Origin: a virus
Virus record (IMG/VR): IMGVR_UViG_3300032315_000202
Coordinates: 3,502 to 67,501 of that record
Length of the DNA: 64,000 bases
Strand: one strand, 5' to 3'
Part shown: one piece after another, positions 1,076 through 64,000 of the stretch
Layout of the letters: every line of letters starts with the position of its first letter
How positions within the stretch are numbered: position 1 is the first letter of the stretch
Notes under the pieces: model-generated
The model's input: the letters and a program-made list of their open reading frames with translations, nothing else
Told to the model about the DNA's origin: nothing
Databases searched by the model: none
Translations under genes and position numbers: made by a program

Positions 1076-4000
1076 TTATTCGCCGTAGAAACTGGGTACA
1101 CTAGGAGGTGTAAGCATAGCCGCAAGTTCGAAGCCGATATGTGCTAGGTCAGGGTGAGGGATGCCAAAGTGGTTCAAAACATGCCTGTATAAGAGTTCAT
1201 ACTTACCAAGAAACTCGGCCGCTGTCCAGAACGCCTTTTTTGCATCGCGCACTAGTTTATCCAAACTTTCATCTAAAGCCTCTGCGTTTGAGTTTCCTGT
1301 CTTTGAGAATTCAGGAGCGATCTGCCCGTTAGCATCAAGAATCTCATAAGCCCTTATGAACTTATCAACGTTTGCTGCGATCTCTTCGGCTGATGGGGCG
1401 GGTAATCCCTTAGCAGCAGCCTCCTGTGCGGCTATACTAACCGCGTCAACGCCGGGAAGGCCGTCACCGTCATCGTCTTCAGTTAGACCTGCTAGCCTTC
1501 TTATCTCGTTCAAGTCGCGCGACTCGTAGGTATCAAAGACCGGCTGGGTACCCAATAGTGGGAAGGCCCTGCCGTAATAGCCCGGCGCACCGGGTTCTGG
1601 GTTTCCGAAGAGGGTCTCCCAAGGGTGGTACAGCATAGGAACATCAAAGCCTAACAGGTTAGCCAGCGCTCCCGCCAAAAGATACGCCCCAAACCATTTG
1701 GCTCCTTTACTAAAATTTCTTTTTGCCTGGTCGATCTTGGAACCCAAACTTTCATCTATGGCTTCTGCGTTTCCTGCCTTTGAGTTTCCTGTCTTTGAGA
1801 ATTCAGGAGCGATCTGCCCGTGAGCATCAAGAAAATCAAAAAGCTGTTTCATCTCAGCAACTTTTTTTGCAATCTCTTCGGCTGATGGAGCGGGTAATCC
1901 CTTAGCAGCAGCGGCTTTCGCAGCTATGCTAACCGCATCAACGCCGGGAAGGCCATCGCCGTCGTCGTCTTCATTGAGACCTGCTAACCTTTTCATTTCT
2001 GAGATTGACTCGCTCCAGAACGCCGACGGCTTTTCGCGATAAAACCACCGGTTAAAAGCCTTATGGGAAGAGCAATAGCGTACGATGCTAAAAGCACTGA
2101 AGCCGGTGTCGGCAGCAATTCTTAAGGCGATGTTATCGGCTTCGCCGACAAGCGTATTATATCTGGCACCGTCTTCTTCGTCTTCCTTCTTGCTTACTAT
2201 TGATGTTAGATCATCATAGAGAGGATGGCTGTCGATTTCGGGATGGTCCCGACCGTCGTCTGCGTTTCGACCTCCGCGAAGTGATTTAATATGCGATTCA
2301 ATATTCTCATTAATACTAGTAGTATTGCGTGAAGCTAGTCTGTTAAGCTGTGAAGCGACAACAGGAATAGTAGCCTGCCCTGTTGACTTCCGCTTATTCA
2401 ACCCACCCGAGATATCGTTAACCATGAAGTCAATACTTTGTTGAAACGAAGCATCAGTTCCCTTACCAGGACCTTTACCTACTTGGTTTGCCCACTCATC
2501 AACTTTTTCTTTATTGCCGGGAGCTGGATTGGCTGTCGTTTTTGTATACTGACGCTGTCTTGCCGGACTCATGTAAGGAGGCGGAGCTTGTAACCGTTTA
2601 GCCATCGCCTGCTCGGCGCCTTGATTAAACTTATCTTGCTTGCTCTTATTAAAGTTATACTGTTGGTCTCTAGCCTTGATGACCATTGCTAATTCAGGAA
2701 TATCGCTGACCTTGATAAGGCTCGTCTGAGCTGGATCGGAGGAAACTTCGTCGTCTATACTAAGATATGTCGCTGCATGGTCAGGATTTTTAATCGAAAT
2801 AGGTTTCCCCCCACCGCTGCGCCGATAATAGTAGGTTTTACCGCTCATGAATTTAACATCATTCGGAGCCTGATATTTTCGTTTATCCGGTGAAGAAGCT
2901 GTTGCTGCTCTTTTTAATAATTCAGGTGACAACTCGTCAAGCTGTTCGGCTTCTTCCGACAACATTGCTAACTTCTTATATAGGTTAACAAATGATTCTT
3001 TTACATCTTTATCTTTCACATCATTTTCCTTTTCTTCGGGTTCGTCCTTGACTCTACGCAGAGCCGGTGGGCCTATCTCATCTCGCATGTTCTTTTCATA
3101 TTCTTGCTTACGCAAGAATGCAGGCTTGTCTGAACCATCCATCCAAGGTTCTAAATCTTCTTCAACAGCTTGATCTTGCATTCCATCTTCGATATCTTGA
3201 CCTGCATCTGCCCTTGCTAATGCTGAGTTAGCTGCTGCATTGCCCTGCATATCGTTTGATGAGTTATGAGCACCGCTGTCTGGAGCATTAGCTTCAGCGA
3301 CCTTGAATTCCATTTGATCTTCTGATTCAACTTCATCCAATACTTCGTCGTGGCCACCGCATTTTGATTCCATCATGCCGCATTCATTACAACGTGCCTC
3401 TGACATTTTTTCGTCATCACAACCACAAGGACTGTTCCCGCATTCTTCGCAACCGCAGTCTTCTTCTTCGTAGTCAGCATTAGTACCTTCGATGCCTGAC
3501 AGCTTCTTCATAAGACCTAACATACCGTCGTGGTCATCAACAACTTCAATTCCGCCCGGAGAGTTGATTTCTGAACGGCCACCTACTTCAGGTGACCCGT
3601 AATCAGAGCCATCATCTCCGCCGAAGATTCCCATGCCTGCTTGCTTTACGAGAGAAAGCAACATGTCTGCTTCAGCATCAGTCGCATTTACATTTACTGA
3701 ATCCGGTGAATTTGGTTCACCCTTAGAGATTGAAACAGAAAATCCTTCGTTGATAAGAGAATTAAGCTGTCTGTCCCATGCTTCAAATGCGAAGTCGCCT
3801 TCTCCTAAATTAGAAGTATCAGTGTATGACCTTCCGCCCATTGAGAACTTACCACCCTTTGGAGTTCTCGCAAGTGCGCCAGTGAATGCATTGCCTTCTT
3901 GAGTGAAGTCCGAGAATCCCTGACCAATACCCGGTCTATTGTTATTTTTGAAATCAGCAGAAGCTTCAGCTTGTGTTTTTTCCTGACCAGTCATTACAAC

Positions 4001-5968
4001 TTTGCCTTTAGCGTCAACAACATCGTACCTGTTCCCCATGTAGTTCCCTTTTGCTGGAACGGCTCGATAGGGTCCTCTTGAAGAGCCTGCTTCATCGAAC
4101 ATCTCATCTTCAGGTAACACGCCTTTTGGTTTACCTAATGGATATTGGTCAGGATAATAACCTGGCTCTCCCTTTTTCATTGCTTTGTAGTCATTTGGAG
4201 ACTTAGCAATCTCACCTGGTCTGCGACGACCTAATACGTCTTGTGGCCTTGAGTTATCAGGTTTATAAGAGAACATTTCATCCATGTCGATCATCTCATC
4301 GAGCGGAGTGTCTAGAGAGTTTTGGGCCATTCCACGAGTTGTAGCTGGCATACGAGCTTCTCTCTTAAGACCTACGATTGGAGACATGCCGTAGCATTCA
4401 TCAAGACCTTCTTTGTAACCTTCGTGATATGCTCTGCCTTCTTCCATGTCTTCGTAGTGCTTACCGTTGTGAGCGTGGCCCTTGAGACCGTGTGCTTTAC
4501 CCTCTAGGCGGGCAGCCTGAATGCGATTGTTCATATTTTCTTTAACTGCCTTTTTCTTTTTATCGACTGCTGCCTTCTTCATTGGTTCTTTCCTATTACC
4601 GTCTTTGTCGAGGTCTAAGAAGTCTGGCTTCTTACCTTCACTAAGTTCTTTTATTCTTGCATATGCAGGAGCTTTTGATTTGGGATATTTCTTACCAATC
4701 AAATCTTTATAGTTTTCTCTGTTGAAGGCATTATCAATAACTTCAACTTGAGGTTCTTTTGCTTCTAATGTTGTCATACTACGACCGGCACCTAAACCAG
4801 CACCTCTAGTATCAATTCCTGATGTAGGAGCGATGTCACCTTCTTTAACTTTTTTCTTGTTCTTATTGTCAAGCATACCGCGCTTGTTAGCAGTTGCCCA
4901 TGCAATGTCTTGTGCTTCGCCTTTTGATTTGCCTGATTTCTTTTCAGACTTTTCAATGTGCTTGACCATGCGATCAACTTTTGCGCCTTCTTCAAGATTC
5001 TCGTCCGAAGGCTGAGCCACGTACGGGTATTTTTTTCGTATCATGAGGTTGTAAGCTGCATCCTTAGCTTGTCCGGCTCTCATTTGCTTACGTGCATCGC
5101 CTGGCTTAGACTTAAAAGCTGCTCTATCTAGCATGTAATCAAGTTCTTTAGCATTGTACTTTTTGAATTTTTCTTCAGCTTCATCGCCGGTGTTTGCTTC
5201 ATCAAGATCAACTTTTGCGCCTTCTTTGATCGGCGAATCAAAGGTCCATCCATTTCGCTCGGCAATTTTGATGACATCGGGCAGTAGATCCTTGACCATT
5301 TCGTCATCTAGATCATAATAATCACGGTCGAGAAGTTCAGCTACCTGTGCGCCTAAATACGCATTAAGTTCACCTTGAACTTCACTAGTCGAAAGGGCTT
5401 CCTCTTGGTCGCAAGGCTGATTGAACTCTGGGAACTTTTCAGCCACGAATGCTTCAGCCCCGCCCTTCTCGAAATCGTGGAAAACTTCAGCCTCTGCATT
5501 TTCTTCAGCATCCGCCGCACGGCCGGCCTCATAACTGGTAGGATCGCCATATTCTACGAGGTCGTCATCTTCTTGCACCGGTTGATTTGGCTGATTGCTA
5601 GTCTGCATTTGATTTGGGTTGGGTTGACCAGCAGCAGTAGGTTGAGATTGTCCTGGTTGCGTTTGCCCGGGAGCTTGAACGATTTGAACGTCCTTTTGAT
5701 CAAATGTATTTAGTAGATCGGCTACAGCAGGATTAGTGCTTGTTAAAAACCCCATACCAGCTTGCTTGTTATTTGGATCCATTACTGGAAGTGGCTTCGC
5801 ACCGGCGGGAATAGATTCGCTCAATTCACGGAACACATCTTTCAGTGATCTCTTTGATGTGGTAGTTGCTACAGGAGCAGGTGAAGACTCATTAAGTACC
5901 TGCCTAGCTTTTGGAGCAGGCAATGCTTCTAGCTGGCTCATTTTGTTTAATAAGTCTTTCATGCTCAT
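1076..5968 (-). CDS. Large modular internal-head/prohead-core-like polyprotein (1630 aa)
   Basis: Acidic, low-complexity protein with many [LIV]-x-E sites (LNE, LVE, IKE, LDE, LEE, VKE, LSE), a DLDKDG motif, repeated RLAGL motif and internal duplications. Confidence 0.7.
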   Translation of the reverse strand: MSMKDLLNKMSQLEALPAPKARQVLNESSPAPVATTTSKRSLKDVFRELSESIPAGAKPLPVMDPNNKQAGMGFLTSTNPAVADLLNTFDQKDVQIVQAPGQTQPGQSQPTAAGQPNPNQMQTSNQPNQPVQEDDDLVEYGDPTSYEAGRAADAEENAEAEVFHDFEKGGAEAFVAEKFPEFNQPCDQEEALSTSEVQGELNAYLGAQVAELLDRDYYDLDDEMVKDLLPDVIKIAERNGWTFDSPIKEGAKVDLDEANTGDEAEEKFKKYNAKELDYMLDRAAFKSKPGDARKQMRAGQAKDAAYNLMIRKKYPYVAQPSDENLEEGAKVDRMVKHIEKSEKKSGKSKGEAQDIAWATANKRGMLDNKNKKKVKEGDIAPTSGIDTRGAGLGAGRSMTTLEAKEPQVEVIDNAFNRENYKDLIGKKYPKSKAPAYARIKELSEGKKPDFLDLDKDGNRKEPMKKAAVDKKKKAVKENMNNRIQAARLEGKAHGLKGHAHNGKHYEDMEEGRAYHEGYKEGLDECYGMSPIVGLKREARMPATTRGMAQNSLDTPLDEMIDMDEMFSYKPDNSRPQDVLGRRRPGEIAKSPNDYKAMKKGEPGYYPDQYPLGKPKGVLPEDEMFDEAGSSRGPYRAVPAKGNYMGNRYDVVDAKGKVVMTGQEKTQAEASADFKNNNRPGIGQGFSDFTQEGNAFTGALARTPKGGKFSMGGRSYTDTSNLGEGDFAFEAWDRQLNSLINEGFSVSISKGEPNSPDSVNVNATDAEADMLLSLVKQAGMGIFGGDDGSDYGSPEVGGRSEINSPGGIEVVDDHDGMLGLMKKLSGIEGTNADYEEEDCGCEECGNSPCGCDDEKMSEARCNECGMMESKCGGHDEVLDEVESEDQMEFKVAEANAPDSGAHNSSNDMQGNAAANSALARADAGQDIEDGMQDQAVEEDLEPWMDGSDKPAFLRKQEYEKNMRDEIGPPALRRVKDEPEEKENDVKDKDVKESFVNLYKKLAMLSEEAEQLDELSPELLKRAATASSPDKRKYQAPNDVKFMSGKTYYYRRSGGGKPISIKNPDHAATYLSIDDEVSSDPAQTSLIKVSDIPELAMVIKARDQQYNFNKSKQDKFNQGAEQAMAKRLQAPPPYMSPARQRQYTKTTANPAPGNKEKVDEWANQVGKGPGKGTDASFQQSIDFMVNDISGGLNKRKSTGQATIPVVASQLNRLASRNTTSINENIESHIKSLRGGRNADDGRDHPEIDSHPLYDDLTSIVSKKEDEEDGARYNTLVGEADNIALRIAADTGFSAFSIVRYCSSHKAFNRWFYREKPSAFWSESISEMKRLAGLNEDDDGDGLPGVDAVSIAAKAAAAKGLPAPSAEEIAKKVAEMKQLFDFLDAHGQIAPEFSKTGNSKAGNAEAIDESLGSKIDQAKRNFSKGAKWFGAYLLAGALANLLGFDVPMLYHPWETLFGNPEPGAPGYYGRAFPLLGTQPVFDTYESRDLNEIRRLAGLTEDDDGDGLPGVDAVSIAAQEAAAKGLPAPSAEEIAANVDKFIRAYEILDANGQIAPEFSKTGNSNAEALDESLDKLVRDAKKAFWTAAEFLGKYELLYRHVLNHFGIPHPDLAHIGFELAAMLTPPSVPSFYGE
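1267..1991 (-). repeat. Two diverged copies of a ~230-bp coding unit (about 1267-1499 and 1749-1991)
   Basis: Both encode RLAGLxEDDDGDGLPGVDAVSIAA...KGLPAPSAEEIA...GQIAPEFSKTGNS...DES. Confidence 0.9.
4972..5226. repeat. Perfect 21-bp direct repeat (4972-4992 and 5206-5226)
   Basis: GATCAACTTTTGCGCCTTCTT occurs twice, 234 nt apart; encodes E-G-A-K-V-D. Confidence 0.9.
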
Positions 5969-28891: not shown

Positions 28892-30106
28892 CTATGGTTT
28901 AATATTATATTTCTGTGCTAATTTTGGATTAGCCTTAGCTAGAGCTTTTAGTTTTTCTTCTGCTGTATCGGCGCCTTTCGCCGCCGATGTTTGTCCTGTC
29001 TTAGATGCGCCGCTGCCGGATACACCAAAGTCTGTTATACCGTCGGCTGCGACTGGGTTGCCGGCGGGCTGCTGGTTCGTCGCATTAGCTAAGCCTTCTG
29101 GTGAAGTTGATCCTGCAGCCGAGATTGCGTATGCTGCCTTAGCTAACTGCTGGATTGCTCCCTTCCAGTTACCCTTTGGGTAATTAGTTTCAATGGCGCT
29201 AATCAAAGATTTAACTTGTTGCTCTCTCCCGCTCCAGTTAACTCCTTTCATCCATTTCCCAAACCAAGTCATCAAATAGGTAGAAATACTTTGATCAGCT
29301 TCACCGGATTGACTCTCAAATAGTTCAGTAATAATTCCTTCAAAAACAAGGTCCATTTTCTTGAATTCGGTGGTCGCAACTGGGATTGGATTACAACGAC
29401 TTAAGAATACACCTGAGTTCCTAGCACCTTCGTAAAGACGAATTCGAAGACCTAAATTGTCCCATGTTAGCCCGTGTTCTCTGAGCATGTTAGTAATTGC
29501 ACGATATACGCTCTGCGTTAAGAATCTTTCGCCAGCTTTACTACTTGCATTCCAAGTAGGAGCGAGTTCACTTACGTCATATCCAGCGTTAGCAAACTTA
29601 AGAATCTTGTTTGCAGCATGAGTCCCGCTCTCTTTATCACCTTTAGCTAGTTTAGCCATGTCACTGTTCAGTTCTGTAGCAAAATTAGCTGGAAGAGGCT
29701 TTGCTCCGGGTTTCGGTTGGAGCCGACGCATTTGTCCTTTAAGATTTTCATAAGGATCAGTTGCGGCTGCATTTTTACCACCGGCAGGAGCAGCAGGGGG
29801 AGCACCGGCAGGAGCAGCAGGGGGAGCCGTGGGCGCTACTTTGGCGGCAGTGTCAGCGTTGTTAGCGGTGTCGGCAGGCGGTGCCTTCGTTGCGGTACCC
29901 GGAACAACTATACCTGATTTAACTGCATTTTGCAAGGAAACAATTGCATCAGCAACAAAGTCTTTAAGGAACAGATCAGACTGTAGTTGAGCTTGTTGAG
30001 TCACCCCCGGCTGGAACATGCTCTTAAGACCGGCCGAGTACACATCAAGGTCTTCGCCCAGAGCTCCTTCATTAAGTTGTGGGTTTTTGAGTTCACTAAT
30101 CTTCAT
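28892..30106 (-). CDS. Probable internal head protein (N-terminus MKISELKNPQLNEG)
   Basis: IP-like N-terminal peptide; Ala/Pro-rich linkers. Confidence 0.6.
   Translation of the reverse strand: MKISELKNPQLNEGALGEDLDVYSAGLKSMFQPGVTQQAQLQSDLFLKDFVADAIVSLQNAVKSGIVVPGTATKAPPADTANNADTAAKVAPTAPPAAPAGAPPAAPAGGKNAAATDPYENLKGQMRRLQPKPGAKPLPANFATELNSDMAKLAKGDKESGTHAANKILKFANAGYDVSELAPTWNASSKAGERFLTQSVYRAITNMLREHGLTWDNLGLRIRLYEGARNSGVFLSRCNPIPVATTEFKKMDLVFEGIITELFESQSGEADQSISTYLMTWFGKWMKGVNWSGREQQVKSLISAIETNYPKGNWKGAIQQLAKAAYAISAAGSTSPEGLANATNQQPAGNPVAADGITDFGVSGSGASKTGQTSAAKGADTAEEKLKALAKANPKLAQKYNIKP
29779..29826. repeat. Perfect 24-bp tandem duplication (APPAAPAG x2)
   Basis: CACCGGCAGGAGCAGCAGGGGGAG occurs twice in tandem. 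Confidence 0.9.
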
Positions 30107-53427: not shown

Positions 53428-53808
53428 TCACTTCTTATAACCCTTAAACGGATTTATCGGGCTTTTAGACTGGGTGCTATCTAACTCTCTACTTACTAGA
53501 TCACCTTTATTCAAATCCTTAAAGGGAACGCCTGCTGCTTTAAATGCTTTTTTTAACATTTTCTGCTCTACCTCAGTATAAGGATGTGCAGTATTTTGCT
53601 TACCTACCCAACTTTCTTGATCTATCTCAGGTTCAATTTCACCGTCAGTTGCTGCAACTGCCATCATAACTCTATTCAGGTCATACGTTCTATCGTACTG
53701 ACTAATAGCAAAGACGTTTAAACCAACGGTGGATTGCTGTTGGCGTTTGGATAATTTGCCAGAAACAGAGCCGTTGTCCTGTTCCGTGATGAACTCGTAT
53801 GCTCTCAT
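53428..53808 (-). CDS. Probable internal head protein, paralog A (MRAYEFITEQ)
   Basis: T4 IP-like N-terminus; ends SPINPFKGYKK. Confidence 0.65.
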   Translation of the reverse strand: MRAYEFITEQDNGSVSGKLSKRQQQSTVGLNVFAISQYDRTYDLNRVMMAVAATDGEIEPEIDQESWVGKQNTAHPYTEVEQKMLKKAFKAAGVPFKDLNKGDLVSRELDSTQSKSPINPFKGYKK

Positions 53809-54209
53809 CTTTTATAACCCTTAAAAGGCTTCATAGGTGAACCAGTACCCGTATCATCCATTTCATCGCTGCCCGAAGAGCTTACCTCTTTTTTACCACT
53901 CTTACCTACTTTAGCTAATGCTTTATCGATTATCTTTCCCACATTAGGATCAAACGAACTCACAATCTGCTGTTCTCCCCAAGAAGTTTCCGCCCTAAAC
54001 TCTGGTTCATCTCCACTCATCACACCATCGTCAAGTCCCTGTTCACCGCGAACTGCCGCGATTGCAACACCAAAACGATACAACTCATAGAAATCATTGT
54101 TTTTCAATTCAGGAATGACATAGGTATTAGGCAAAGATTTATTTGCCACATCAAGTGCATCATGCACTTGATCTAACCGTTGTTCAGTAATGAATTCGTA
54201 AGCTCTCAT
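53805..54209 (-). CDS. Probable internal head protein, paralog B (MRAYEFITEQ)
   Basis: Same N-terminus; ends SPMKPFKGYKR. Confidence 0.65.
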   Translation of the reverse strand: MRAYEFITEQRLDQVHDALDVANKSLPNTYVIPELKNNDFYELYRFGVAIAAVRGEQGLDDGVMSGDEPEFRAETSWGEQQIVSSFDPNVGKIIDKALAKVGKSGKKEVSSSGSDEMDDTGTGSPMKPFKGYKR

Positions 54210-58756: not shown

Positions 58757-58973
58757 ACACTAATATGTAAAGTTCTTCCAGCTTAAGTAGCTGGTCATTA
58801 AGAGTAGGATTTGTTTCTGCTAGTTTGCAGATTTTTAGCAGGCGTTCTTTACGCTTCGCTAGACGATTGGCCTTCTCTAACCATTCATGCGTGTTAGGAA
58901 GGGCGCGGGATGACGATCCATGCCCTATTATTGCATAGACCATCATTCCCTTATCAGGCGAGTCGTTAGTCAC
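58737..58973 (-). CDS. Hypothetical protein
   Basis: 78-aa ORF, coupled. Confidence 0.6.
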   Translation of the reverse strand: MTNDSPDKGMMVYAIIGHGSSSRALPNTHEWLEKANRLAKRKERLLKICKLAETNPTLNDQLLKLEELYILVCDDEDN

Positions 58974-60298
58974 TTACCCTTCCGGTGATCCGAATAGATT
59001 GCGTAAGTACCGAAGGGCGGGTTCGGGTTCGGGTCACCGTGAATGATCCAAGTCGTATCACAGTATTCCGGATCACCCCAGCTACCAAACGGATACCCGT
59101 CAGTGAAGACGATCAGCCGATTGGGAACGATAGTTTCTTCCTTGAGATACCTGAAGATGCAGTCAAAGTCGGTGCCACCGCCGCCAGCCAGTTCGTAATC
59201 ATCAATCGTGTCAAGGTTCTCCGAAGTATAATCCTTCGCATTGTAAACCCGAGTGTCAAAGCAAGCGATATGGATCTTGAAACCATCAAAGATATCCATC
59301 ATACCGGCAACTTCGCTGATGAACTGCATACCCTGCTTGTTCGAGATAGAACCCGACATGTCGATCATGATAGTGACATCAATCTCTTCACCGGGGTTCA
59401 TGCCGGGCATGACAGCATCCATGTGCCAACCTCGACGAGAAGGACGCATCCAAGAGTAGTCTGACCTGATAGCAGAGGTCAGATTAGTCTGGATCAGTTC
59501 ACGCCAGGGCATGACAGGATCAGTCATCTGCTTGATCATACGCTGAACGCCTGCGGGGATAGAACCCGCATCAGCTTGTTGTGCAGCGTTGATGATAGAC
59601 TGCTTCACTTCCTGACGGATTTGTTCCTTCTCGGCTTCTGACAGTTTCGGACGACCTTTGCCCTTCTTGTCGCTGCCTTCACCATCTTCGCCATCTTCAC
59701 CATCACCATCGCCCTCACCATCAAGGTGATCATCGAGCATCTTGTCGATGAGATCATCGATGCTGATATGCTGTGCATTCTTCATGAGGTCATCGTAGAT
59801 TTCCTCAGAAGGTACGCTGTCATACTTTGCTTCGAACAACGCAGGGACAGTAGTGATGAACTCGCCAATCTTGTGACGCTTCAAGTCAGCGTTTACAGCA
59901 TAGTCAACCGCGATGTTCCAGACTTGAGGATCACGATGATCACGGCGACCCATGTGATCATAGACAACGTGAAGTACCTCGTGACCGACAAGGAAGTCAA
60001 CTTCCTTCGGACGAAGCATCATGATGAAACGAGAGTTGTAGTAGAAGTTAAGACCGTCAGTAGCAGCGGTCGTGCACCACTCATCAGCGTTGATCAGCTT
60101 GAGGCGAGTAGCGAGGTTGCCGAAGAACGAGTGCTTGAGCAACAGGCTGATACGAGAAGTGATGATGCGTTCACGAGCGTCATTGTCAATCTTCGGATCA
60201 GTAGGACCCAAAAGGTTCTCGAACTTTTTGCTGCGAGAACGCTTTTTCTTATCGGGGGAAATAACACTGCTCATTGGGATAGCCTTTTGTTTGATCAT
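58970..60298 (-). CDS. Metallopeptidase-like (HExxH) plus VWA domain protein (DUF2201-type)
   Basis: TAATDG, HEVLH, WNIAVD..VN; MIDAS DMSGS, GGGGTDF, FTDG. Confidence 0.9.
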   Translation of the reverse strand: MIKQKAIPMSSVISPDKKKRSRSKKFENLLGPTDPKIDNDARERIITSRISLLLKHSFFGNLATRLKLINADEWCTTAATDGLNFYYNSRFIMMLRPKEVDFLVGHEVLHVVYDHMGRRDHRDPQVWNIAVDYAVNADLKRHKIGEFITTVPALFEAKYDSVPSEEIYDDLMKNAQHISIDDLIDKMLDDHLDGEGDGDGEDGEDGEGSDKKGKGRPKLSEAEKEQIRQEVKQSIINAAQQADAGSIPAGVQRMIKQMTDPVMPWRELIQTNLTSAIRSDYSWMRPSRRGWHMDAVMPGMNPGEEIDVTIMIDMSGSISNKQGMQFISEVAGMMDIFDGFKIHIACFDTRVYNAKDYTSENLDTIDDYELAGGGGTDFDCIFRYLKEETIVPNRLIVFTDGYPFGSWGDPEYCDTTWIIHGDPNPNPPFGTYAIYSDHRKGK

Positions 60299-60336
60299 GT
60301 TGCTAATATAGTGTGAAGCAGGACCGAAGTCAAGCC

Positions 60337-60567
60337 TCAATGTCGGGTATTCTTCGGGGAGAAGGCGTCGTCTTCAAGCCATTCAATCATATCGTCAGGA
60401 AGTTCATCAAGGTCCAACTCACCTAGCGGTACGGCATTCTCTAGCATCTCACCGCTGTCTACCATGCGGTTGATTTCCGCAAGGAGTTCGTCCATTTCTT
60501 CCTGTGTCATGTCGAGGTTGTCAAAACAACCCGGAGCAAAGATAATATTCATTTTCTTTTCAGTCAT
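60337..60567 (-). CDS. Small acidic hypothetical protein
   Basis: FAPGCFD motif, 76 aa. Confidence 0.65.
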   Translation of the reverse strand: MTEKKMNIIFAPGCFDNLDMTQEEMDELLAEINRMVDSGEMLENAVPLGELDLDELPDDMIEWLEDDAFSPKNTRH

Positions 60568-60577
60568 TTTTTCCTAC

Positions 60578-60865
60578 TTAGATCGATGGCCGATCACGGT
60601 TTTCGTTCATTTCTTTTGCCATTGCTTTAGCTTCCTCGTCCTTCTCATATTGAGTAAGGACACGACCTTCATAGGTCTGCATTTCTGCCAAATCTGACGC
60701 CGAAATACGGGTGAGAATGTCAGCACGGGCCGCGATGCAATGAGCAAGTTCAGCTTGATATGGACTTCCAGACTTTACAGCCGCAGTGAGTCCGTTGATG
60801 CGTGACTGACAGTGCCGAAGATGTTGCTGTTCTACAGTATAGGTAAAGAATTTCTTATTAGACAT
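60578..60865 (-). CDS. Hypothetical protein
   Basis: 95-aa ORF, SD AAGGA. Confidence 0.65.
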   Translation of the reverse strand: MSNKKFFTYTVEQQHLRHCQSRINGLTAAVKSGSPYQAELAHCIAARADILTRISASDLAEMQTYEGRVLTQYEKDEEAKAMAKEMNENRDRPSI

Positions 60866-60895
60866 TCGGTCAGTCCTTTCAAAGAGACATGTAAT

Positions 60896-60928
60896 AAAAG
60901 GGGAGGGGCTGTCTCGAACCCCTCCCCT
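60896..60928 (-). terminator. Intrinsic terminator
   Basis: AGGGGAGGGG..CCCCTCCCCT followed by TTTT. Confidence 0.75.
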
Positions 60929-60941
60929 AGGAGCTCAGGCT

Positions 60942-62042
60942 TTACTCGCCTGCTGCCACAATGTACTTACCGTACTTCTTGTGGAAGTCGTCGAACGTCT
61001 TAAGCTGAGAAGGCTCGATCGGCAGCTTATACGTCTTGAGAGCAATCTTCGAACCCATGACGATCAGTTCAGTTTCGAAGTTCTTCATCATGTATTCGAA
61101 GAAGTTGTCGCACATTTCGTGGAACTTCTTCGTATCGACCCGCTTGTTATCAAGCACGTCCTTCAGTTCGTAGCACATAGAAATCGTGAGCGAATACATC
61201 GCAGAGATTTCCTTGACATTGAGGTCCTTCACCTTGCCCTCAAGAATAGAGAGGGGGTCGGGCATACGACCAGCAACCTTGCGGTGTGCCATGAACTTCG
61301 TAGCGAGACCGTCGCCGACCGAACCTGCGACGAGGTTGAACAGCGTGTCATTATCGATGTTTTCTTCATCAGCGAGCAGATCGCTCACGAAGACCCACGA
61401 ACGCGGAGTAGCGAATGCACGAGACGAACCCTTAGCGTCGAAGTCATAACCGTCCTGTTTAGCGAACGAGAGATAACCAACAACGTCACGGTGAACGCCC
61501 TTGTTGACAGCCCAAGTCTGCCAAGCATTGAAGTCGTAACGCATTTCAAGGTGAATGAAGCGGTTAGCGAGCGGCATCGGCATGCGATACGTGACACCCT
61601 TGTCACTGTCGCGGTTACCAGCAGCAACGATAACGACGTTATCAGGCAGCTTGTATTTACCAACACGACGGTTCAGGATAAGCTGATAACCAGCAGCTTG
61701 AACTGCGGGCGGGGCCGAGTTCATTTCGTCAAGAAAGAGAACGACGATGGGGTATTGCGAAGCAAGTTCTTCGCTGGGAAGATCGACCGGTTCAGCCCAG
61801 TCCATCTTGCTGATGTCTTTGTTGAAGAAGGGAATACCGCGAATATCAGTCGGTTCCATCTGCGCCATACGCAGATCAACCATATAACCACCGAGTTCAT
61901 CAGTGATATCTTGAACGCATTCGGACTTGCCGATGCCCGGAGGGCCCCACAAGAAGACAGGACGTTTTGCCTTAAACGCAGTGAGAATAGCCCGACGAGC
62001 CTGAATAGAAGTGACAGTCAGGGTATCAGAAACATGAGACAT
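60942..62042 (-). CDS. MoxR-type AAA+ ATPase
   Basis: WGPPGIGKS, LFLDEMN, VAAGN, PLANRF, TPRSW. Confidence 0.9.
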   Translation of the reverse strand: MSHVSDTLTVTSIQARRAILTAFKAKRPVFLWGPPGIGKSECVQDITDELGGYMVDLRMAQMEPTDIRGIPFFNKDISKMDWAEPVDLPSEELASQYPIVVLFLDEMNSAPPAVQAAGYQLILNRRVGKYKLPDNVVIVAAGNRDSDKGVTYRMPMPLANRFIHLEMRYDFNAWQTWAVNKGVHRDVVGYLSFAKQDGYDFDAKGSSRAFATPRSWVFVSDLLADEENIDNDTLFNLVAGSVGDGLATKFMAHRKVAGRMPDPLSILEGKVKDLNVKEISAMYSLTISMCYELKDVLDNKRVDTKKFHEMCDNFFEYMMKNFETELIVMGSKIALKTYKLPIEPSQLKTFDDFHKKYGKYIVAAGE

Positions 62043-62448: not shown

Positions 62449-62790
62449 TTATGCTTTAAAACTAATACTTTCGCCGCAGCCGCAACTGCTAGCTGCTAAA
62501 GGTGATTTGATTTCAATCACGCTGCCTGTGATGTCTACTTTTTTATCTACCGTGCTTCCAATCAAAAATAGTTCAGAAGTCTTGTCTAGCCAAAATGTCC
62601 AATCATCATACGCTTTGCAGTAGTCGTGTGAGGAAATCTCATCAGCAGAATTGACTAGCTCCCACTTGTAACTGAATCCGGCACAGCCTCCGCCGGCAAG
62701 CGATAGGCGAACCCCAAGTGCTTTGGAGTTATCACAAATATGCTTAAAGTGTTCTTTAGCAATGTCCGTGAAGTAAATTGCGTCTTTCAT
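62449..62790 (-). CDS. iscA: A-type Fe-S cluster carrier (IscA/HesB family)
   Basis: GGGCAGFSY and SSCGCGESISF. Confidence 0.9.
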   Translation of the reverse strand: MKDAIYFTDIAKEHFKHICDNSKALGVRLSLAGGGCAGFSYKWELVNSADEISSHDYCKAYDDWTFWLDKTSELFLIGSTVDKKVDITGSVIEIKSPLAASSCGCGESISFKA

Positions 62791-62826: not shown

Positions 62827-63381
62827 TTAACCCCAGCCTATGCTCGTATTGTTTTTTTGTGCGAACTGTATGATCTCGATTAATCTATCTATATAACGAT
62901 CAACTTGTGACTGACTCCGACCTGCATCATACATAGTGGGGCCTCTACCAATACGAGCAACTCCTTGATCGTCGCTCTGTCGGCGCATTACACCCCTGTC
63001 CACGCTGGCATCTTGGGTGTGCTGTTGGCTACCTTTGTTTTTTAACATTATTAATCTACGCATGACATCAGGCAAGTCTTTGTTATGTATGATTCCTGAA
63101 TAATCCGGATCTAGTCCTAGCATCCGTTGAATCTCTTCGCCGTTAGCATTGCTTACTTGAAGTTCCGGAGCATCTGAAACTCTATCTTCTTCTTTGCCTG
63201 TTCCCCCGCAGTAAACGCATAGTTGCGTCCTATCTTTTCCAGTACCATCACAATCTCGGCAGTCTATTGTTATCTTGCGTTCCCAATCGGAACCGGTCCA
63301 GTATTTTTCACCGGTGCTGAATTCCTTTTCTACGACTGGGTTAAATGTCATCCCCTCGTTTAGTAATTCTTTTATTTTCAT
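62827..63381 (-). CDS. Probable internal head protein with a DnaJ-type zinc-binding pair
   Basis: MKIKELLNEG N-terminus; CRDCDGTG..CVYCGGTG. Confidence 0.65.
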   Translation of the reverse strand: MKIKELLNEGMTFNPVVEKEFSTGEKYWTGSDWERKITIDCRDCDGTGKDRTQLCVYCGGTGKEEDRVSDAPELQVSNANGEEIQRMLGLDPDYSGIIHNKDLPDVMRRLIMLKNKGSQQHTQDASVDRGVMRRQSDDQGVARIGRGPTMYDAGRSQSQVDRYIDRLIEIIQFAQKNNTSIGWG

Positions 63382-64000
63382 TTTATCTTTCCATCTGCTC
63401 TGGCCTGGGGAGGGATGCCTGCTCTGGAAGTCTTGAAGCCGAATGCCTTAGCGTTCTTCTTGATTGCGTCTGGCTTTACATCTACAGTGAGTGCAGTCTT
63501 GAAGCGAGGATCGTTCTTTTCTTTTGCAGATGGAATGTATCCTGAGGCTTCGTCTATTTTAGGATTCTTGTATGGCTCAGAATTGTCAAACACTGCATAT
63601 ATGATAGGGTAGTCGTCATCGCCGGCAAAATTAACTTCAATAGGCTCCTTGCCGCCTTCTCGTTTCACGAAATCTCTGATGACCTCGTCGTATACATCAT
63701 CATAATCTGCTAAATATTGTGGATCATCGGATGGTAGTTTGCAGCGTCTTTCTGCATCTTCTTGGCACTCATCCGTAAACCCTTCGAAGTGAACGCGGTA
63801 CGGACCAAACTCCTCTACCCCAACCTCGTCAGGACTCAATGACTGTACGAAATCATCTATTTCATCTTCATATTGACTGTATCCTGAGGCTTCGTCTAGA
63901 TTGCTTCTAGCTTTCCAAAACTCTTGGCCATCTGGCTTAACATCATCAGACGGGTGTAGTTTATAATTGAATTTGCGCTCTATCTCGTTATAGATTTTAG
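63378..64000 (-). CDS. C-terminal part of a modular polyprotein; runs off the right edge
   Basis: Frame is open upstream of the track's TTG to the window end: ...KIYNEIERKFNYKLHPSDDVKPDGQEFWKARSNLDEASGYSQYE... Confidence 0.8.
   Translation of the reverse strand, partial: KIYNEIERKFNYKLHPSDDVKPDGQEFWKARSNLDEASGYSQYEDEIDDFVQSLSPDEVGVEEFGPYRVHFEGFTDECQEDAERRCKLPSDDPQYLADYDDVYDEVIRDFVKREGGKEPIEVNFAGDDDYPIIYAVFDNSEPYKNPKIDEASGYIPSAKEKNDPRFKTALTVDVKPDAIKKNAKAFGFKTSRAGIPPQARADGKIK
63536..63898. repeat. Perfect 21-bp direct repeat (63536-63556 and 63878-63898)
   Basis: TGTATCCTGAGGCTTCGTCTA occurs twice, 342 nt apart; encodes D-E-A-S-G-Y. Confidence 0.9.

Follow-up and report, generated by a model that had tools for sequence, protein, structure and literature searches.

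Modules of a polyvalent protein from a T4-related freshwater phage are bordered by candidate prohead protease sites

The right end of a 64,000-nt stretch of viral DNA, hereafter the window (positions 3,502 to 67,501 of the 67,501-nt IMG/VR record IMGVR_UViG_3300032315_000202; G000:C1:3502-67501), encodes the last part of a polyvalent protein, in which unrelated modules follow each other in one chain. The source is a freshwater myovirus that has not been cultured; it is related to T4 and has a genome of roughly 350 kb. We observed that an acidic module of this protein is bounded by two copies of an exact 21-nt repeat, and this repeat looks like the coding sequence of a candidate cut site for a phage head protease. 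In our preferred reading, to which we give a probability of about 60%, the protein would be a polyprotein that gets loaded into the head of the phage and is cut at the junctions between its modules, and the modules would be swapped as cassettes by recombination in the junction DNA. The chain would be built into the prohead, where a protease of the gp21 type would cut after the Glu of each junction, and the small proteins set free would remain in the head and reach the host together with the DNA. Cassettes would be acquired, dropped and relocated through recombination in the short coding sequence that the junctions share, and only those recombinants that keep whole domains and cut sites would survive. 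The constant N-terminal head domain or the constant basic tail of the chain would be candidates for bringing it to the prohead.

The repeat, TGTATCCTGAGGCTTCGTCTA (+ strand), occurs in two direct copies spaced by 342 nt, i.e., 114 codons. With up to three mismatches allowed, just these two matches were found in the 64 kb, where 0.01 was expected, and two or more matches occurred in 0 of 100 shuffled sequences. Similarity around the repeat reaches 39 nt at 85%, on one side only (repeat family D3). Both copies lie in a minus-strand frame of 206 aa (63378..63998) whose 5' end is open, since the window ends with its contig inside the gene; the contig amounts to 19% of a genome according to CheckV. 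The frame reads KIYNEIERKF...KARSN-LDE↓ASGY-SQYEDE...NPK-IDE↓ASGY-IPSAKEKN...GKIK-stop, where the arrow marks the module border, and the upstream flank of the first junction reads KIYNEIERKFNYKLHPSDDVKPDGQEFWKARSN-LDE↓ASGY. All six codons common to the two copies (D, E, A, S, G and Y) are identical, with p = 0.0031 if the two peptides had been encoded independently under the codon usage of this phage. The two copies therefore share descent at the DNA level, and their perfect identity speaks for a recent event. A first-pass annotation, made from the letters of the window alone, had proposed an acidic 114-codon module bounded by 21-bp repeats at DE↓ASGY. This description was confirmed, with exact 21-mers 342 nt apart and a module of 114 aa that contains 33 D+E against 10 K+R (net charge -23). 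The features of this region and of the other genes discussed below are listed in Table 1.

Table 1. Positions of the polyvalent-protein gene, its parts and further genes in the window
Feature	Position	Strand	Remarks
Polyvalent-protein gene, 3' end (206 codons + stop)	63378..64000	-	Truncated by contig end; full-length form P0002, 877 aa
GNAT module 2, C-terminal end (KIYNEIERKF...KARSNLDE)	63891..63998	-	PF00583 on P0002 residues 614-680, fragment from residue 672
Upstream 21-nt junction copy, codes (L)DE↓ASGY	63878..63898	.	Exact repeat
114-codon acidic cassette (ASGYSQYEDE...NPKIDE)	63549..63890	-	Self-contained alpha/beta domain, unnamed family
Downstream 21-nt junction copy, codes (I)DE↓ASGY	63536..63556	.	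Exact repeat; single copy in L017, L021, L003
Constant basic tail module (ASGYIPSAKEKNDPRFKTALTVDVKPDAIKKNAKAFGFKTSRAGIPPQARADGKIK; 13 K+R, 5 D+E)	63381..63548	-	In 35/37 unique complete family proteins
Next gene, 184 aa, starts MKIKELLNE	62827..63381	-	Start overlaps polyvalent stop (ATGA)
Pair of neighbouring small genes (126, 134 aa), each with the start MRAYEFITEQ	53428..53808, 53805..54209	-	Resembles T4 MKTYQEFIAE
Second modular protein, 1630 aa	1076..5968	-	Own exact 21-nt repeat 4972-4992, 5206-5226

The complete protein could be retrieved from a separate contig of 174,620 nt. With the 114-aa module as the query, we found P0002 (877 aa) among 1.84 billion representative proteins, and its residues 672-877 are exactly the 206 aa of the window. 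P0002 consists of a nucleotidyltransferase head, a helical part, a first GNAT-like module and a helical "YTTKQ" module, followed by a peptidoglycan-binding-like module (a name given by eye only), a second GNAT module, the acidic module (residues 708-821) and the basic tail (822-877). The second GNAT module matched PF00583 at residues 614-680 with 58.2 bits, against a cut-off of 20.7; this cut-off was also exceeded in L017 (34.4) and P0010 (32.7), and another GNAT-like stretch reached 21.4 bits in L003. The window fragment contains only the last residues of the GNAT match and gave no PF00583 match of its own. The acetyl-CoA-binding loop of GNAT enzymes follows the pattern Q/R-x-x-G-x-G/A, and by eye such a loop is present in P0002 as YRRKGFATKIY, directly before the window fragment. 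Thus, the sequence upstream of the first junction, which had been likened to the C-terminal end of a GNAT domain, proved to be exactly that, since P0002 contains the whole fragment. For the nucleotidyltransferase head, Pfam gave weak hints only (NTP_transf_2 at E = 0.003 in L023), a GS...DxD motif was recognized by eye, and a comparison with solved structures gave no match at E ≤ 1. The window fragment itself matched no family of Pfam or PHROGs at E ≤ 0.1, and tblastn found no match to it in 50,697 deposited phage records. The full-length structure model of P0002 was poor, with a mean predicted local distance difference test score (pLDDT) of 54.3. Both junctions fall into low-confidence stretches (residues 701-709 and 813-851 of this model, residues 103-114 of a model of the module).

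We then considered the relatives of P0002. A first scan of viral contigs gave 23 loci whose open frames code for proteins of 540-1170 aa. These proteins have in common an N-terminal domain with the signature of Pol-beta-type nucleotidyltransferases (...SGSNAAYSYTPHSDLDLH...) and a basic segment (ASGYIPSAKEKNDPRFKTALTVDVKPDAIKKNAKAFGFKTSRAGIPPQARADGK), and the modules between domain and segment differ. In ten family proteins searched with Pfam, GNAT scored above the cut-off and, in two of them, ParB_N just below its own. In five (L004, L012, L018, L022 and L023), ART-PolyVal (PF18760, "ADP-ribosyltransferase in polyvalent proteins") scored 57-68 bits, where the cut-off is 31.2; P0002, the allele of the window, lacks it according to Pfam. 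From 85 loci examined, 62 open frames with the head motif were obtained, 56 of them complete and 37 unique, with lengths of 302-1450 aa. The head was present in 37/37 of the unique proteins, the tail in 35/37 and the acidic module in 5/37; the underlying automatic segmentation is rough and served only for the presence or absence of these three parts. The two shortest members, L155 (302 aa) and L114 of G007 (304 aa), consist of head and tail only and look like an empty frame. The gene thus appears to consist of a constant frame around zero to about eight cassettes, with ART-PolyVal behind them in some cases. The first-pass annotation had suggested that enzymatic effectors are among the cargo of the chain. 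Enzyme modules are indeed present (a nucleotidyltransferase and two GNAT-like modules, with ART-PolyVal and ParB-like modules in relatives), and the terms "polyprotein" and "cargo" keep the conditional status of our preferred reading. The family falls within the class of polyvalent proteins defined by Iyer et al. in 2017 (PMC5512222).

Forms of the gene with and without the acidic module could be compared directly. In both L017 and L021, the 342 nt are exactly absent and one 21-mer is kept; the 102 nt upstream show 0 differences in either locus, and the tail shows 4/158 differences in L017 and 9/158 in L021. A more distant variant with the same join of GNAT and tail is present in L012-L016. 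The module was also found in other contexts; the first-pass annotation had proposed looking for such contexts and for orthologs lacking the insert. In L003, it stands with the tail behind the peptidoglycan-binding-like module (5/321 differences in the module; ...GKKLKE↓ASDYSQYE), and in L004-L006 it stands behind a third module that is unnamed by Pfam (...KLLE↓ASDY). In L022 and L025, it comes directly after LKE and before a ParB-like module, in L010 and L011 a ParB-like module replaces it, and many unrelated proteins contain it as well. Overall, 9 of the 23 loci of the first scan have the acidic module and 14 do not.

Both forms were moreover recovered from the same run. In run X1, possibly the sample from which the window itself came, the module-bearing form is represented by a 463-nt contig (depth, 40.7) that spans both repeats from 63445 to 63907 without a single differing letter. 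The module-free form is represented by a 121-nt contig (depth, 19.7) that leads from the tail through one 21-mer into GATTGCTTC, the window letters 63899-63907 behind the second repeat. The upstream contig common to both forms has a depth of 60, the sum of their depths. The module-free contig differs from the window at 7 of 112 tail positions and L017 at 1 of these 112; the forms that lack the module thus do not belong to a single clone. These differing flanks point to repeated recombination and not to a single event. In runs X2 and X3, the module is preceded by TTAVQGKKLK, a sequence of the L003 type. Branching of the assembly here probably explains why the contig of the window, L003, L007, L019 and L021 all end inside the gene. 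Such branching would also be compatible with an assembly artefact, i.e., a chimeric join of two strains at a common 21-mer: the contig ends 102 nt from the repeat, and both exact repeats of the window are exactly 21 nt long. We consider an artefact extremely improbable, since the order GNAT 2, module and tail recurs in P0002 on its separate contig, GNAT 2 is followed by the module in L008 and L009, and the single 463-nt contig of run X1 crosses both repeats.

The peptides at the module borders follow a common rule. Homology between family members breaks directly after Glu, as in LSIEE↓, LDE↓AYTTKQ, YIDE↓, LKE↓, NLDE↓, KIDE↓, VNE↓, LYE↓, ISE↓, KIAE↓, LAE↓ and VRE↓. The pattern [LIVM]-x-E was found in 28 of 47 non-redundant breakpoint clusters, and random intervals gave 6.3 +/- 2.2 and never more than 14 in 2000 trials. 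Before the constant tail, we counted 31 distinct upstream decapeptides, of which 25 end in [LIVM]-x-E and 29 are then followed by Ala. The flanks of embedded acidic modules behave alike: among representative proteins clustered at 50% identity, the motif occurs in a 21-residue window at the start of 63/71 modules and at the end of 54/69, with tightly clustered offsets and a chance level of 0.31. The module of the window fits on both sides, with LDE↓A and IDE↓A. Judged from these sequences, the junction peptide (L/I)-D-E↓A-S-G-Y is one case of an [LIVM]-x-E↓(A/S/N/G) motif that stands at nearly every module border of this family. The gp21 protease of T4 cuts after Glu in L/I-X-E, which was first seen at a Glu-Ala bond in gp22 (PMC9026906), and the proteases of phiKZ, 201phi2-1 and SPN3US are likewise reported to cut after Glu (PMC5694885).

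A protease with the matching rule is encoded in this lineage. The window contains genes for UvsX, UvsY, a single-strand DNA-binding protein of the gp32 type, sheath, tube, neck and large terminase. Via the other modular gene of the window, we found five related genomes whose TerL proteins are 81-84% identical in four cases and 65% in the fifth; four of the genomes are rated 98-100% complete at 349-364 kb, and one, of 250 kb, is rated 67% complete. Peptidase_S77 was detected in 5/5 of them with 89-98 bits, against a cut-off of 27, and a capsid protein of the Gp23 type was detected in all four that were searched for it. A member of the head-tail family is present in 4/5. In G005, an open reading frame of 366 aa between the protease gene and the capsid gene contains [LIVM]xE 28 times (capsid protein, 5 times in 398 aa), as expected of a scaffold that is degraded by the protease. 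Peptidase_S77 was not found in four other contigs, all of them partial, which makes this result uninformative.

The internal proteins of T4 are described as sharing only a leader, MKTYQEFIAE, and as being cut once behind it (PMC8442874, PMC3012670). We observed T4-like leaders (MRAKEFIIE, MRAREFILE, MRASEFITE or similar) on 22 of 132 module proteins that start with Met, compared to 3/701 in a control with internal Met residues. Of these 22 proteins, 13 have at least 250 aa and are thus multi-module chains; in P0009 and P0005, the acidic module stands directly behind the leader. At the DNA level, the leader pattern occurs at 2-6 sites per genome in five genomes, on one strand per genome, and the reversed control gave 0.

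The two adjacent window genes that start with MRAYEFITEQ share a 37-nt repeat at their 3' ends (D4, 53424/53801), and a similar gene pair lies a few kilobases from the terminase gene in four related genomes. More genes with MRAxEFxxE leaders are located about 5-8 kb from the polyvalent gene in G005, G006 and G007, with three in a row at G006:121024-122275. The position of leader genes near the polyvalent gene suggests a neighbourhood of cargo genes.

Several observations weigh against a packaged and protease-cut chain. At the motif itself, 19/47 breakpoint clusters lack [LIVM]-x-E, several of them being near misses caused by alignment ends, 6/31 tail junctions lack Glu at P1, and the head often ends in LSIEG, LSIEN or LSLNN. 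The pattern also occurs inside folded modules, with 15 sites in P0002. The p-values for embedded modules (2e-24 at the start, 4e-16 at the end) overstate independence, since the counted proteins share ancestry. As for the gene, the polyvalent protein starts with MDISELEDF, which is outside the leader pattern, and its gene lies among auxiliary genes, outside the head module. On the 67.5-kb contig of the window, which is 19% of a genome, neither a prohead protease nor a capsid gene was found, and the head genes of this phage are therefore inferred from relatives. Packaging and cutting would likewise follow from motifs and relatives. In the junction DNA, we observed silent variation among 22 loci (GAC/GAT, GCC/GCA, GGA/GGT/GGG and TAC/TAT), which therefore speaks for short homology and not for a fixed recombination signal. 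Finally, similarity breaks inside the module in L008 and L009 and the frame ends early, so that not every recombination falls at a junction. These two loci (P0010, 804 aa) have GNAT 2 followed by the acidic module with ASDY at the junction, and after about 210 nt of the module they are no longer similar to the window; they may represent a damaged allele.

Site-specific cassettes of the integron type were considered separately and rejected: the junction DNA varies at silent positions, and the flanking genes that we examined included no member of a recombinase family.

Part of these points would suit a multidomain chain that is never cut, in which [LIVM]-x-E↓A would represent flexible linkers copied along with the modules and the 21-nt repeat a neutral scar of recombination or slippage, with no protease involved. 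The missing leader, the position outside the head module and the silent variation of the junction DNA agree with such a chain, cutting at the junctions has been deduced and not seen, and large proteins are known to be transferred uncut, namely the virion RNA polymerase of N4, ArdC and TraC1, according to Iyer et al. (PMC5512222). We nevertheless regard an uncut chain as unlikely, if far from negligible. If the peptides were nothing but linkers, neither a fixed Glu nor an aliphatic residue two positions ahead of it would be required, and the motif is found in front of the tail after no fewer than twelve unrelated upstream sequences (25/31). It is also found on both flanks of the module in distant proteins. 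Moreover, the same lineage encodes a protease with the matching rule and places T4-like leaders on module proteins, several of which are multi-module.

Cutting might also be performed by another enzyme, which would be a protease of the host or a peptidase that forms part of the chain and would act either ahead of packaging or once injection has taken place. Iyer et al. (PMC5512222) proposed that embedded peptidases set domains free, and a HELQH stretch in L023 resembles a zinc peptidase by eye. However, no Pfam peptidase family was found in P0002 (E ≤ 1e-5) or in ten family proteins (E ≤ 0.01), members made of head and tail only have no room for a peptidase, and the motif equals the published gp21 rule. 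Such an origin of the cuts thus seems quite improbable to us.

The acidic module behaves as an independent unit. Its family comprises 139 representative clusters at E ≤ 1e-3, of which 35 are free-standing proteins of at most 130 aa and the rest are embedded at varied positions. In 26 aligned module sequences, E-G-F and a Cys four residues later are invariant. AlphaFold predicted a helix, two strands, two helices and two strands with a pLDDT of 91.4; confidence is lower over the C-terminal 12 residues, at the end of which the junction lies. An in-frame insert between direct repeats could also arise by an old tandem duplication of the neighbouring domain or from selfish DNA, for example an intein or a transposon that duplicates its target site. 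We give hardly any credence to these origins, since the module is predicted to fold by itself, exists in free-standing form and codes for no recombinase or nuclease. A tandem duplication was refuted, because the module is not similar to the tail or to the GNAT end (best BLASTP E = 16). The first-pass annotation would have been contradicted by a module present in all orthologs or by a duplication of the downstream domain; module-free orthologs exist, and the module is unlike that domain. Inteins start with Cys, Ser or Thr, as does the extein that follows them, and they end in His-Asn. An intein was accordingly rejected: the module starts with Ala, ends in Ile-Asp-Glu and is followed by Ala, and free-standing forms exist.

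Searches for a known relative of the acidic module gave little. For the 26 aligned sequences, Pfam returned scattered single matches only and PHROGs none. The best values were E = 0.12 for the module profile against Protein Data Bank sequences, E = 0.1 with Foldseek against solved structures and Z = 5.3 with VIA-align against 48,161 chains, the last being under the stated noise level of that tool. In the ESM Atlas, no score exceeded 0.80. Among predicted viral structures, one uncharacterised protein of a haloarchaeal virus was matched at E = 5.8e-4. P0026, a single free-standing homolog, had no relative in the genome collection. We also searched 91 partner proteins of more than 180 aa with Pfam and found GNAT in 5, Cu/Zn superoxide dismutase in 5, ART-PolyVal in 4, DUF5661 in 2 and DUF5872 in 1, with 73 unnamed; the matches in P0086 and P0108 look spurious. 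The fusions of Cu/Zn superoxide dismutase to the acidic module are the representative proteins P0044, P0117, P0121, P0133 and P0140. From its charge and company, one might guess that the acidic domain is an injected binder or inhibitor of a host defence protein that binds nucleic acids, a doubtful proposal on present evidence. With its 139 clusters, no family name and no known fold, the domain would be a candidate for a new injected anti-host factor.

The features described above can be compared with known systems. Polyvalent proteins, as presented by Iyer et al., combine 2 to 15 unrelated conflict-type domains in one chain encoded by a phage or conjugative element, and an embedded peptidase is frequent in them but not universal (PMC5512222). 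Packaging and delivery with the DNA were predicted in the same paper. The proteins described here share with this class the unrelated domains in one chain (Pol-beta nucleotidyltransferase, GNAT, ART-PolyVal and ParB-like), the occurrence in a phage with terminase and architectures that differ strongly between relatives. They differ in that no embedded peptidase was found by Pfam, the borders follow the rule of a separate prohead protease and the cassettes are framed by a constant head and tail, whereas the text of Iyer et al. proposes release by embedded peptidases and, as far as it goes, describes no junction motif; the word "prohead" occurs in it once, in the reference list. Nucleotidyltransferase-bearing forms are placed there mainly in mobile elements of Firmicutes, and here they occur in a giant T4-like phage (PMC5512222).

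The internal proteins of T4 (IPI, IPII, IPIII and Alt) are reported to be diverse small anti-host proteins with only a short address and cut signal in common; they are cut after Glu in L/I-X-E, kept in the head and injected (PMC9026906, PMC9958956, PMC3012670, PMC8442874). The lineage studied here resembles T4 in its Peptidase_S77, its Gp23 and its leaders MRAYEFITE and MRAKEFIIE, which are similar to MKTYQEFIAE. However, the T4 proteins are separate genes with one cut each, and the polyvalent gene has up to about eight modules per frame, a motif at each border and no leader. In phiKZ, 201phi2-1 and SPN3US, many proteins inside the head are described as being cut after Glu (A-X-E or S/A/G-X-E) and entering the host (PMC5694885, PMC10052503). 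The P3 residue preferred here is aliphatic, as in T4 and unlike these motifs. Head proteins of the phiKZ type are mostly single proteins that lose a propeptide, and no swapping of cassettes at cut sites is described in the portion of the literature covered (PMC5694885). Polymorphic toxin loci are similar in that recombination brings alternative modules into the main locus, where they come to lie behind a part that stays constant (PMC5512222). They are said to swap a C-terminal tip from silent downstream cassettes, whereas the modules here are internal, several per chain and exchanged between phage genomes. Polyvalent proteins and the leader-and-protease system of T4 are thus each known, and no paper joining them was found in a full-text search, with the supplementary architectures of Iyer et al. 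outside its scope.

A wider form of our preferred reading would describe plug-and-play cargo, and we propose it tentatively, at somewhat less than even odds. Any domain flanked by [LIVM]-x-E, either between head and tail or behind a leader such as MRAxEFIxE, would be loaded into the prohead, freed by the protease and injected. The DNA of the cut site would double as the site of crossover, and the phage population would reshuffle a library of anti-host domains, with several alleles per lake sample. If the junctions are real protease sites, the loading of a few small proteins in T4 would become a general loading of enzyme strings in its giant relatives. It would also explain how polyvalent proteins come apart when they contain no peptidase themselves, and a simple rule, [LIVM]-x-E separating compact domains, would become available for finding injected phage proteins in metagenomes. 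Since clean presence and absence alleles occur in one sample, evolutionary turnover becomes directly measurable.

The second modular gene of the window shows the same junction logic as the polyvalent gene. In this 1630-aa protein, the 21-nt repeat codes for (K/E)EGAKVD directly after I-K-E and L-E-E, and relatives align from residues 98-99 or 169-171 onwards, the positions of the two junctions. The second of them is also the start of a widely conserved module. The 3' part of this gene also contains a direct repeat of 226 nt with 84% identity (1282-1507/1774-1999), which codes for ...RLAGL(N/T)EDDDGDGLPGVDAVSIAA... twice.

Further genes of the window are mentioned briefly. The 184-aa gene next to the polyvalent gene has a leader-like start and a weak match to a DnaJ-type CxxCxGxG zinc finger (18.7 bits, below the cut-off). 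At 58970-62042 on the minus strand, genes for a MoxR-type AAA ATPase (366 aa) and for a putative metallopeptidase of the DUF2201 family that carries a VWA-like domain (456 aa) stand close together, separated by small genes. Further on, at 62449-62790, an Fe-S protein of the IscA type is encoded. These genes are all syntenic in L017 and L025. A perfect 24-nt tandem duplication is located at 29779-29826, inside the open reading frame 28892..30106.

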